Shown here: in pieces, positions 15,001 to 18,000 of the stretch
Layout of the letters: each line of letters begins with the position of its first letter
Position numbering within the stretch: position 1 is the stretch's first letter
Origin: Myxococcota bacterium
Lineage (GTDB): Bacteria > Myxococcota_A > Polyangia > Nannocystales > Nannocystaceae
Reading direction: 5' to 3'
DNA: 64,000 nt
NCBI GenBank assembly: GCA_039028615.1
Contig: JBCCHT010000001.1
Location: forward strand, 384,001-448,000
Program-made: the position numbers

Positions 15001-18000
15001 AGGGCGGCACTGGCCTGTACTCGCAGGCACCGCAGCCGGTGGAGACGAGCGAAGAGTTCGGCAACCCGGAGCTCGGCCTGCAGCGCGGCTGGCAGAACAG
15101 CCTCGGCGTCGCCCAGCAGTTCGACTACGGCATCAGCCTCGATGCCACCGGGTTCTTCAACTACATCTGGGATCAGCCCACCGCCTCCGAAAACCTCATC
15201 GTTCGCCAGGACGGCTCGGTGGGCCCGGAGCTGTTTGCCAACACCCAGACCGGGCGCGTCTACGGCCTCGAGCTGCTGCTGCGCAAGCAGCTCACCAATC
15301 GCTTCTTCGGATGGCTGGCCTACACGCTGTCGCGCAGCGAGCGGCGCCCGACCCCCTCCGAGGAGTACCGGGTCTTCGACTTCGACCAGACCCACATCCT
15401 CACCCTCATCGGGGTGGTCAAGCTCCCCAAGGGCTGGCAGGTGGGCGGGCGCTTCCGGCTCGTCTCGGGTAACCCCGATACGCCGGTCATCGGCGCCGTC
15501 TACGACAGCGCGGGCGACTTTTACCTACCGATCAACGGTACGACCAACTCCGACCGCTTCCCCGCCTTCCACCAGCTCGACGTTCGCGTCGACAAGAAGT
15601 GGACCTGGAAGCGGGCGAGCATGACGCTCTACTTGGACATCCAGAACCTCTACAATCGACAGAACACCGAGTTCTGGATCTACAGCTACGATTTCACCGA
15701 CCGCCGCCCCGTCGCCGGCCTCCCCATCATCCCCTCGCTGGGGACCAAGATCGAGTTCTAGCGCCATGCCGACCTCCCCTCGCCTCGCACTGCGATGTGC
15801 CCTGCCGCTGCTGGCCGGGTTGGGTTCGGCCTGCGCCATGGACCTGCCCATCTCCGAGCGCATCATCAACGAGCGCCCCTTGGCCATGCGGGTCGAGGTC
15901 GTCGACCCCTTCGCCGACCCCGATGCCGCCGTGCGGGCCGAGGCCCTGCCCGTCGAGAGCATCCGCGCGATTCCCTTCATCGTCGACGCCAGCGAGGTCC
16001 TCAGCCCCGAGCGCATCGAGAACGAGCTCGAGCCCGTCTGGCTCGCCTGCCCGCTCCAGCCGCTTCAGGGCATCTTCGCCTGCCTCAGCGCCCAGCTGCC
16101 GCTCACCCTCGACGAGATCGTCGAGTGCCCGCCGGTCGACTTCGCCGCGCTCGAGTCCGACGAGCCGCCGTCCATGCCCGCGCCGTGCCTCGTCACGGGA
16201 GGCACGCCGGCCGAGCCCTCGATGCAGGTGCCCATCGACTTCAACTTCTTCCTCGGTGGCGACATCGAGCTGACGATGATCGCCCACCGCCCCGATGCGG
16301 GCGACACCACACAGTGCGCCAACGACCTGCTCGGGCAGCGCGAGCTGTCGCCCGAGTGCATGTACGCGGTCCAGCGCGCTTCGATCGGACCGGACACGGC
16401 CATCCTGCGGCTCGCGGCCGAGAACGGGCTCGCCGACGAGGAGCTGCTGGGCACCATCCCGTCCGAGGACGAAGTCCCCGACGCCGACCGGCACCCGCGA
16501 ATCCAGACCTTCCGCGTGGTCATCACCGACGAAGTCGACGTGACCCGCGAAGACCTCGAGCGCGTGCTCTCCGAGGGAGAGTCGATCGAGGTCGCCCGAG
16601 GAGACACCGTGGCGGTGCGGGCGGGACAGACCCTGGTCATCGAGACGACGGCGCCCGAGGAGGACCTGCAGACGTATCTCATCCCGACGGACGACGATGC
16701 GTACGAGGAGCGGGACGAGGACTACTCCGGGGACTGGTACCGCACCTGGGGCACGCTGCTGTCCACGAGCAGCGACGACCCGGTCAGCTTCAACACCTGG
16801 ACGATGGTTCCGGGGGAGCAGGACGACTCGCTGACGGAGCTACCGCCCGAGGGGTTTGCGACGCTGTACTACGTGTTGGCGGATTCGCGGCAGGGTGTGG
16901 ACTGGTGGTGGTTCAACGTGCAGGTACAGTAGCGGGGTGAGGGTCGTATGAGTTGGTTCGTTGGCTGGCTTGCGTGGAGCTAGGGTGGCAAATGTTCGAG
17001 CAGGCGGCTTGCCTGTTTAACGGATGGAACCCTCCCCGGACGTGCTCGGCGGCCGTTAGAGCCGAGTGGTTCGCGTCGGCTGTCGGCGGCCGCCTCCGCG
17101 CGACCGGGCCCCCTCCATCCTACGCGGCTTCGCTTCAGCCCTCCCCGTGGCACCAGCTTCCGGGCGAACAGCCGTTGGGTATTGCGCCTGCGTCCGTAGG
17201 AGATGAGTTCCGTGGTCAGCGTTTGGGTGTCGTCGATGCAGGGAGCACGTTCACGCGGAGGCTCGTTGAGACTTCTTTTCTCTTCGAGTCAAAGACACCG
17301 AATCTCGAGAACGAACTCTCCCCGATGAACAAGAAATACCCGACGACTGCCCGCTCGGACGTCTGAGCCAAGTCGCAGATCAGCCAGCAGTCCCTTCCGA
17401 CACCAATGCAGAACCCGGCCACCGCCCGATCGGAAATCGAAGGCATTAGCAGGCCAGCCCCCGTTCGAAGATCCAGCAGCCCTACCCGGGCACTCCCCCT
17501 CGACACCAAAACGCAGAACCCGGCCGCTGTTCGCCCGGAAGTCTGAGCCAAGTCGCAGGCGACCCCCCATTCGAAGATCCAGCCGCCCTACCTCCAAGCA
17601 GTCCCTTCCAACGCCAATGCAGGACCCAACCACTGCTCGCCCGGAAGCTGGTGCCACGGGGAGGGCTGAAGCGAAGCCGCGTAGGATGGAGGGGGCCCGG
17701 TCGCGCGGAGGCGGTCGCCGCCAGCCGACGCGAACCACTCGGCTCCAACGGCCGCCGAGCACGTCCGGGGAGGGTTCCATCCGTTAAACAGGCAAGCCGC
17801 CTGCTCGAACATTCGCCACCCTAGCTCCAAGCAAGCCAGCCAACGAACCAACTCATACGGCCCTCACCGACGCCGCAAAAACGCGAAATCACGATCCATG
17901 ACCGTCTTACGCCCATCCGCCCGAGCATTGTCGACCGCCTGGCGGCACACATCACGAAGATGGTCCGACAACACCCCGAAGACTCCATCGGACGTGTTGA

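Follow-up and report, generated by a model that had tools for sequence, protein, structure and literature searches.

The Foldback elements of eukaryotes have defined termini, target-site duplications (TSDs) and autonomous copies that encode a transposase of the P or MULE superfamily. Other intergenic repeats, the ERIC/IRU and Correia/NEMIS sequences, are imperfect palindromes of 100–170 bp that are often transcribed and form long RNA hairpins; Correia elements additionally carry terminal inverted repeats (TIRs) and a TA duplication. To our knowledge, neither ERIC/IRU nor Correia/NEMIS sequences form inward-facing arrays around variable centres. The REP, REPIN and BIME repeats, which go with RAYT transposases, are, in the sections of Bertels & Rainey (2011, PMC3116915) drawn on here, extragenic palindromic modules (20–60 nt for a REP), in which the dominant arrangement is an inverted doublet that has a fixed spacing of 71 or 110 bp and can form a hairpin. 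According to the same sections, singlets occur as well, REPIN clusters consist of tandem units together with their flanking sequence, TSDs are lacking, and the repeats are lineage-restricted, vertically inherited and long-persistent. TIMEs have 38-bp Tn3-type inverted repeats, 5–6-bp duplications and a known source of transposase, and TIME-derived mosaic transposons bracket unrelated DNA with such non-autonomous inverted repeats, as stated in the consulted parts of PMC4133298.

The repeat family described here, from Nannocystaceae, resembles REPs and REPINs in its extragenic palindromic modules, in the dominance of inverted doublets that can form a hairpin, in the singlets found alongside them, in tandem clusters with flanking sequence, in the lack of a TSD and in a lineage-restricted, vertical inheritance with long persistence. 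It differs from them in a 117–148-nt core that contains internal loops and whose apical stem varies, in a locus-specific doublet spacing of 97 bp to several kb, in that no cluster lies beside a RAYT gene, and in the genes found inside some doublets. With a module 5–7 times the length of a REP and a variable doublet spacing, the family departs from a REPIN-like reading. Eukaryotic Foldback elements (Drosophila FB, Galileo and Tetris) are alike in their long inverted arms of tandem sub-repeats, their variable or absent centre, their unequal arm lengths and their link to the formation of tandem repeats, whereas the defined termini, TSDs and autonomous transposase copies of these elements were not found in the Nannocystaceae family. 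ERIC/IRU and Correia/NEMIS share the imperfect palindromes and long hairpins, but their sequences are not like those of the present family, which matches none of the Rfam families. The bracketing of unrelated DNA by non-autonomous inverted repeats recalls the TIME-derived mosaics, but the inverted repeats, duplications and transposase source given in the consulted parts of PMC4133298 are absent here.

The locus and its repeat family

The window, by which we mean the whole 64,000-nucleotide stretch of DNA that was analysed, belongs to a metagenome-assembled genome of a marine myxobacterium (G000; 12.3 Mb in 94 contigs). Its positions 16936–17868 form an imperfect palindrome, with arms of 265 nt that are 93% complementary and a centre of 403 nt (Table 1), and the predicted fold of this whole element has −695 kcal/mol (z = −37). 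Within the centre lie direct repeats of ~106 bp (families D1–D3), which look like decayed units without the core. A coding hypothesis for the arms and centre was rejected: their ORFs, those of the centre included, do not show the codon-position GC pattern seen in the called genes nearby, and the sub-families of the repeat differ from one another by apical indels.

Table 1. Features of the palindromic locus and its neighbours, in window positions.
Feature	Position	Strand	Description
Left flanking gene	15766..16932	+	388 aa, no Pfam match; stop codon 3 nt before left arm; homologous DNA in 5 of 5 congeners
Left arm	16936..17200	+	One family unit: G/T-rich head, core hairpin, C-rich tail; inverted repeat; nhmmer match C1:400944-401191
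Left core hairpin	16997..17142	+	Helices P-1, P0, P1, 6x6 internal loop, P2, variable apical P3; covariance model R1 match C1:400997-401142, 125.9 bits; covariation
Centre	17201..17603	.	Unique to locus, non-coding, GC 0.61
Right arm	17604..17868	-	Inverted unit copy; nhmmer match C1:401858-401606; 94-96% identical to left arm
Right core hairpin	17662..17807	-	R1 match C1:401662-401807, 121.3 bits
Right flanking gene	17864..18697	-	277 aa; TGA stop within first bases of right arm

Searches of G000 with this locus reveal a dispersed family. The left arm gives 76 blastn matches (E<1e-5), a 258-position unit profile gives 106 nhmmer matches at E≤1e-3 (62 of them with at least 200 match positions), and a core-only profile gives 97, of which 90 are near full length, spread over 48 places. 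Both orientations occur at 21 of the 48 places, and all 21 read '> ... <' while none reads '<...>'; the core-to-core gaps are 280–6540 bp, and the inverted arrays have 1–3 units per side. Set against these 21, 13 internal places have one orientation only, and at 20 contig ends a unit is less than 400 bp away. A preliminary description of the family (99 matches, 70 full length; 21 places with facing copies; 13 or more contig ends at units; no Rfam family at E≤1) is confirmed, and its 170-bp unit gives way to one of ~235–250 bp from head to tail, with a conserved core of ~117–148 nt. For Rfam, nothing relevant emerged: at E≤1, window positions 16500–18400 and eight loci from four assemblies and one metagenome contig gave only chance matches, far below gathering scores.

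Units in tandem arrays bring along their flanking sequence, and the point at which the inverted repeat ends on its outer side differs from element to element, lying 10–100 nt from the core. Arms within one element are 84–96% alike, sometimes past the common core, compared with best matches of 0.77–0.94 between different loci. In G000, no copies from different loci are at least 97% identical, an observation that speaks against a REPIN-like reading.

A covarying core hairpin

The conserved core, an imperfect palindrome of ~140 nt, folds as a single strand into a rod-shaped hairpin. Its base and internal loops are conserved, its apical stem varies freely, and covariation within it is strong. Over the 29 consensus pairs, 95.6% of cells are paired, compared with 41–56% when the partners are slid, and compensatory changes occur in 14 pairs as opposed to 3–7 in the slid controls. 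For four of five measures, none of 500 shuffles attained the values observed. All 22 sequences keep two U.G pairs unchanged, and the forward strand gives the better fold in 58 of 90 copies under RNA parameters and in 65 of the 90 under DNA parameters.

Distribution and genomic context

The covariance model R1 has a match in 9 of 73 family genomes and none in the other 64, and seven genomes have clear hairpins (E<1e-7). Counts in same-genus genomes are at least 42, 36, 10, 3, 0 and 0; two such genomes without any hairpin copy are 92–94% complete, and within one genus the copy number ranges from 0 to about 100. Strict pattern scans returned eight loci from the species-genome collection, all in three Nannocystaceae assemblies, and five from the metagenome collection; the plasmid and phage collections gave no match. 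In these searches, the family was found only in Nannocystaceae. Outside G000, the '> <' order holds at 14 of 15 places with both orientations, which come from G002, G004, G079, G080 and three metagenome contigs. The inward-facing doublet recurs in other genera.

Gene calls, which are crude (ORFs plus codon-position GC), exist on both sides of 14 internal doublets, and 10 of these sit between convergent genes, abutting their stop codons. Among one-orientation places with an informative context, four are co-directional with the neighbouring genes and four antisense, so that no tie to transcription emerges.

A doublet common to G002 and G004 shows how arms evolve. Its arms are 91–95% alike within a species and only 76–80% between species, and at this locus the arms have evolved in concert. 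Concerted evolution probably also better explains arm likeness elsewhere. The hairpin base of the same doublet is 79–87% conserved, against 38–51% for the surrounding non-coding DNA, which hints at selection on the host side. Similarly, cores are 85–91% identical between G000 and G004, and flanking genes 69–83%.

Empty sites, termini and cargo genes

At four sites, G000 carries an element that congeners lack, and three of these elements have genes inside. At the window element, the two flanks are separated by 45 bp in G002, 40 bp in G003 and 21 bp in G005, and in G001 and G004 the site holds 1.0 and 1.6 kb of other DNA without a hairpin match. For the element on contig C13, the flanks are 168 bp apart in G004 versus 2138 bp in G000; C18a, with a SEFIR/TIR gene inside, spans 3119 bp versus 154 bp in a congener, and C54b, with four ORFs inside, about 5.5 kb versus 16 bp. 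The reverse also occurs: G000 has neither a G004 singlet nor a G002/G004 doublet at the corresponding positions. At the C51b site, the left flank is not conserved beside the right flank. The family is therefore polymorphic for presence and absence between congeners; the direction of gain or loss is something we infer, in species whose flanking genes are 66–90% identical and where insertion and deletion are indistinguishable at nucleotide resolution.

Fifteen elements were inspected, and they have neither a TSD or direct flank repeats nor a common terminal motif. No complete transposase occurs among the ORFs inside the G000 centres, and none in the G002 centres or on the small unit-bearing contig C91. 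Genome-wide, G000 has only two fragments of the Mutator family (PF00872) and no intact gene, and a single weak RAYT-like gene (PF01797; C13:40464-41396), which reaches 34 bits on NF047646, where the cut-off is 80, has no unit nearby and has relatives in G079 and G080. Conversely, no R1 match beside nine Y1-like genes from five genomes improves on E=0.24; such genes occur in five of the seven clear hairpin genomes versus 15 of 66 others, a weak association among related genomes. No RAYT or other transposase adjoins any unit, which is a further departure from a REPIN-like reading. Nor does a MITE fit, which would have a fixed-length TSD and short TIRs matching those of a parent IS, and no parent IS was found.

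Centres at different loci are not related to one another, and many contain local tandem repeats: in all-against-all blastn of 21 centres, no two loci have the same centre, and the only matches are self tandem repeats and one of 70 bp between C42 and C50. One centre holds a fragment of a Mutator-family (IS256-family) transposase, Transposase_mut. The genes inside centres encode a SEFIR/TIR protein, a secreted Exo_endo_phos protein and lipoproteins without an assigned function, with a third-position GC of 0.62–0.81, lower than that of the neighbouring genes (0.80–0.96), the only background used. Relatives of the C18a and C13 proteins in the family are at most 36% identical, and none was seen in the same context, between hairpins; R1 was not run on the loci returned. 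The first 'cargo' gene of C18b, syntenic with the left flank in G004 where there is no hairpin, is an old resident. In G002, ordinary kinase genes lie between the arms of two long '> <' pairs, and these arms are not specifically related.

Two further candidates were rejected. A retron does not fit, with no RT domain among the Pfam matches of the centre ORFs and the Rfam retron msr family unmatched. Integron attC sites have the core sites R''/R' (RYYYAAC ... GTTRRRY), and integron cassettes lie in one orientation beside an integrase; here, the consensus GTTGACG or GTTTAAC and its partner do not fit both core motifs, and the arrays are inverted, with no ORFs between units; no search for an integrase was made.

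These results bear on what the preliminary description had made of the family. Its two empty sites (the window copy and the C13 copy), as well as the other DNA at the window site in two congeners, are borne out. Its foldback-type element survives as an architecture (modular inverted arms of tandem units, variable centre, non-coding, dispersed and polymorphic) and fails on TSD, shared termini and linked transposase. Arm likeness within elements, which it had noted, is real and can be the product of concerted evolution. Three gene-bearing blocks absent from congeners uphold gene cargo in part, with the resident C18b gene as the exception. Recent activity as a unit, which had been claimed for this lineage, is not supported, because there are no common centres and no between-locus copies reach 97%. 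The view that foldback elements with gene cargo were undescribed in bacteria is not supported: bacteria are known to have non-autonomous elements with genes between inverted ends, the TIME-derived mosaic transposons among them (PMC4133298).

Origin of the family

We tentatively favour, at a probability a little short of even, a REPIN/BIME-like, non-autonomous, single-strand-hairpin repeat that has grown into arrays and palindromes with unstable centres. On this reading, the family would be selfish or semi-domesticated, much larger than the usual REP, REPIN or BIME, and not a transposon of the transposase-and-TIR kind. Its usual state is the inward-facing inverted doublet, so that one strand of a whole element can fold back on itself. 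Units or doublets would be copied to new intergenic sites via a single-stranded hairpin intermediate by an enzyme acting in trans, which would explain the missing target duplication and fixed termini; the only candidate class seen is a RAYT-type Y1 HUH nuclease, which is unlinked. Slippage or unequal exchange may then enlarge the tandem arrays, and gene conversion may keep both arms alike. The unstable palindrome centre would gather local tandem repeats, junk such as the IS256-family fragment and sometimes foreign genes.

Alternatively, the repeats could be a structural module of the host, acting as a stable RNA hairpin (which protects 3′ ends, or separates convergent genes as an insulator or processing site) or, as in BIMEs, as a DNA cruciform or protein-binding site; doublets would serve two converging transcripts, with recombination spreading the copies and selection keeping them. 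We consider this unlikely but worth serious attention. In the doublets between convergent genes, each incoming transcript would meet the well-folding strand first, and the invariant U.G pairs, the slightly more stable forward strand, the conserved hairpin base at the G002/G004 doublet, the cores that outdo flanking genes in identity and the lack of a transposase, TSD or fixed terminus all suit such a module. However, window positions 16700–18100 contain no site with an intrinsic-terminator pattern (a G+C-rich stem, then a T run) and no sigma-70 promoter pattern, and one-orientation places are evenly divided between co-directional and antisense. The absence of the hairpin from most family genomes and from two of the same genus makes the module dispensable, copy number swings widely within that genus, and the same congener sites are simply empty.

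A true foldback-type non-autonomous transposon, in which arms and centre move whole and carry cargo with a transposase that is unrecognised or unassembled, appears to us improbable. It would account for the gene-bearing blocks of C13, C18a and C54b that congeners lack, whose arms share locus-specific sequence past the core, for the deviating third-position GC and distant relatives of the cargo, and for the Mutator-family fragment in one centre; with so many contig ends in units, an autonomous copy could also have escaped assembly. Yet 15 elements without a TSD or common terminal sequence, the lack of any centre common to two loci and a Mutator family reduced to two fragments argue against it, as do the C18b resident, the kinase pairs of G002 and the unit-bearing C91 without a transposase, and concerted evolution explains the arm likeness. 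We give almost no credence to an assembly artefact, namely chimeric fold-back joins or collapsed repeats, even in a metagenome-derived assembly of 94 contigs that often ends in units and with ~118 nt of each window core covered only by multi-copy words. The arms are imperfect (84–96%) rather than exact copies, the same architecture recurs in four other assemblies and three metagenome contigs, and covariation cannot be an artefact. Furthermore, in Logan contigs of the only sequencing run listed for this genome, a marine metagenome DNA run, positions 16300–17020, 17138–17666 and 17784–18500 are single-copy at an even depth of 14–18, so that the mutually pairing ends of the arms, outer and inner, fall in unique contigs; these contigs have no joint across the element and, as they drop rare variants, do not address excision.

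Implications

What this analysis adds is the ~140-nt covarying rod hairpin, its restriction to Nannocystaceae, the recurring doublet and four empty sites. The family seems to behave like an oversized relative of the REP/REPIN type, not like a proven new kind of transposon. Repeats of such size and order are rare in bacteria, and here they fragment the assembly of a 12-Mb myxobacterium at 20 contig ends; R1 can be used to mask or annotate them in Nannocystaceae assemblies. As a host module, the hairpin would be a new structured motif of RNA or DNA that is specific to Nannocystaceae. Should the doublets instead move via hairpin intermediates, REPIN-like biology would reach a phylum and a size class for which nothing is described in the literature searched. 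A bolder possibility, which we hold to be rather doubtful, is a novel bacterial replicator in which a nested palindrome moves or renews itself via a fold-back single-strand intermediate, without termini or target duplication of its own, and whose unstable centre traps and carries foreign genes as a prokaryotic counterpart of foldback or Pack-type elements. The gene-bearing centres may show how palindrome centres acquire foreign DNA.

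The window element between convergent genes

The window element consists of two inverted arms, 403 nt apart, and wholly occupies the space between two convergent genes. At 17864-17868, the TGA stop of the right-hand gene sits within the right arm's outermost bases, GGTGAGGG; in the congeners, the same protein (…FLRRR*) is terminated by a stop of their own. The centre (GC 0.61) contains ~106-bp direct repeats that, judged by sequence, resemble the head and tail of a unit without its core. No promoter or terminator pattern was found at the element. In the sole public run with this DNA, single-copy contigs of depth 14-18 span 16300-17020, 17138-17666 and 17784-18500, and the summed depth over the window's cores is 376-2200. 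Because single-copy contigs of even depth cross the arm ends, the palindrome is not an assembly fold-back, and we regard an assembly artefact as highly improbable.

Features of the window element, its neighbours and the RAYT-like gene
Feature	Position	Strand	Remarks
Left inverted arm	16936-17200	+	265 nt, 93% complementary to right arm
Right inverted arm	17604-17868	-	265 nt, 93% complementary to left arm
Left flanking gene	15766-16932	+	stop codon 3 nt ahead of left arm
Right flanking gene	17864-18697	-	TGA stop supplied by right arm's first bases
RAYT-like Y1 HUH gene, sole one in the studied genome (G000)	C13:40464-41396 (L031:1390-2322)		310 aa, HYH motif

A family of hairpin repeats

In the G000 assembly (12.27 Mb, 94 contigs, 68% G+C), a core-only profile finds 97 copies at 48 places, 90 of them near full length, and 106 pieces (62 near full length) pass E<=1e-3 with a 258-position profile. 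Units, made up of head, core hairpin and tail, measure ~235-250 bp, and a second sub-family has only the central ~117-148 nt in common with the first. Both orientations occur at 21 of the 48 places, facing inward in all 21; a single orientation is seen at 13 internal and 14 contig-end places, and a unit lies within 400 bp of 20 contig ends. Convergent genes flank 10 of the 14 internal doublets (inverted unit pairs) with both neighbours called, by crude gene calls. The unit at C8:99-270 lacks the hairpin's inner part, with breakpoints exactly between the two C-rich internal-loop strands (CCCTCC ... CCCTCC), as if by deletion between direct repeats.

A structure alignment of 22 cores from both sub-families yields a rod hairpin with 29 consensus pairs. 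Paired cells reach 95.6%, versus 41-56% after sliding the 3' partners by 1-3 columns, two-sided changes occur at 14 pairs versus 3-7 in the slid controls, and for four of five measures none of 500 shuffles attains the real alignment's value. Helix P1 varies (GGAUGGA/UCCAUCC, GGCGGA/UCCGCC, GCCAGA/UCUGGC, GCGAGA/UCUCGC), and the apical stem keeps its pairing despite free sequence variation. Conserved parts include a 6x6 internal loop, a bulge and two U.G pairs; these pairs show no variation in 22/22 sequences, and the opposite strand would have C.A mismatches in their place. Folding favours the forward strand slightly, in 58/90 copies with RNA parameters and 65/90 with DNA parameters, the copies being non-independent. 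Together, the pairing, the invariant U.G pairs and this folding preference point to the forward strand in single-stranded form, as RNA or DNA. The core hairpin has no match in Rfam.

A covariance model of the core matches in 9 of 73 family genomes: at least 42 times in G000, 36 in G002, 10 in G004, 3 in G001 and 0 in G003 and G005 (same genus), 6 in G079, 4 in G080 and 1 in G073 (another genus), and as two weak singles elsewhere in the family. A strict pattern finds 8 loci in a species-genome collection, every one in three assemblies titled Nannocystaceae, and a looser pattern finds 5 in a metagenome collection; plasmid and phage collections gave no match to the hairpin. Outside G000, 14 of 15 two-orientation places face inward, with gaps often only 97-330 bp; thus, the inward-facing doublet is the conserved state, elaborated into long arrays only in G000. 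The exception, at G004:C16:64654-65070 (L091:755-1171), is the sole outward-facing pair seen in any genome; two elements side by side may each contribute one arm to it. The end of G002:C258 and the start of G002:C68 (L076, L059) carry reverse-complementary sequence beside their doublets, and may be one assembler-split locus or two copies of one element.

Gain, loss and concerted evolution

The preliminary description, which proposed a cargo-carrying foldback transposon, reported two absences from congeners, and both hold: the window element's flanks lie 45 (G002), 40 (G003) and 21 bp (G005) apart, and those of a C13 element with a 268-aa ORF 168 bp apart in G004 versus 2138 bp in G000. Element C18a, with a SEFIR/TIR gene inside, is missing from G005 (154 bp versus 3119 bp in G000), G003 and G001, and the flanks of C54b (5.3 kb, four ORFs) are 16 bp apart in G001, their stop codons almost touching. 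Conversely, G000 lacks a G004 singlet, and also a doublet common to G002 and G004, at the corresponding sites. The SEFIR/TIR_2 protein (330 aa; C18:62653-63642, L034:454-1443) is encoded between two hairpins by a gene of unusually low third-position GC (0.62), and the whole block is missing from three congeners.

Doublets at G004:C6 and G002:C202 have both flanks in common (88-90% identical). Within species, arm likeness is 95.1% and 90.6%, versus only 76-80% between orthologous arms, so the arms of one doublet homogenise each other. Arms are indeed more alike within than between elements, as had been noted, but concerted evolution suffices for this, and recent transposition is not needed. Conservation between the two species falls from 79-87% in the hairpin base through 56-65% in the apical stem to 38-51% in the tails, centre and outer non-coding DNA, so some constraint acts on the base even where the site is fixed.

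What kind of element is it?

Three block absences in congeners and the low third-position GC of inner genes favour the foldback transposon, yet much counts against it, and we consider it quite unlikely. Fifteen elements show no target duplication or common terminus, and the inverted repeat ends 10-100 nt beyond the core. Centres are unrelated from locus to locus, many with private tandem repeats, and best between-locus identity is 0.77-0.94, contig-end pieces giving the top values. The genes within centres code for secreted proteins, proteins of unknown kind, a short-chain dehydrogenase and the like; in C18b, synteny places the first inner gene with the left flank in G004, where there is no hairpin. 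In G002, two long inward-facing pairs simply flank kinase genes and have arms without specific relatedness. No linked transposase was found: G000 holds two Mutator-family fragments and no intact Mutator/IS256-family transposase. One of the two fragments, 105 aa and N-terminal, lies inside an element centre (C50:92380-92694, L038:1381-1695). The RAYT-like gene scores 25.6 bits for Pfam Y1_Tnp and 34 bits for NF047646 (under cut-off); no units were found near it, nor hairpins adjoining nine Y1-like genes in five genomes. It is followed by a private 144-bp tandem repeat. In genus g25, the hairpin-bearing G073, G079 and G080, compared with G071 and G075, each have 4-10 weak Y1_Tnp-like ORFs (230-700 aa), and 7 of 8 hairpin-free genomes have none; as these genomes are related, the co-occurrence may reflect one shared event. 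Cargo between inverted ends is not in itself new, since gene-carrying non-autonomous bacterial elements such as TIME mosaics are known (PMC4133298).

A host RNA or DNA module, which the conserved hairpin base and the convergent-gene setting favour, is less improbable, though still on the unlikely side.

The features fit the REP/REPIN/BIME pattern, which Bertels and Rainey (PMC3116915) describe as palindromic extragenic modules, mainly inverted doublets but also singlets, with ordered tandem clusters that take in flanking sequence. Compared with that description, the Nannocystaceae repeat is several-fold larger in scale, has variable centres, and has no RAYT gene (the Y1 HUH transposase associated with REP/REPIN repeats) adjoining any cluster. 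In open-access papers and preprints on myxobacterial MITEs, bacterial foldback elements, Nannocystaceae repeats and Enhygromyxa inverted repeats, we found no description of the family.

Tentatively, and at somewhat short of even confidence, we favour a non-autonomous hairpin repeat that would be mobilised in trans through a single-stranded intermediate. Slippage would let its arrays grow, gene conversion would keep its arms alike, and its unstable palindrome centres may sometimes take up DNA.
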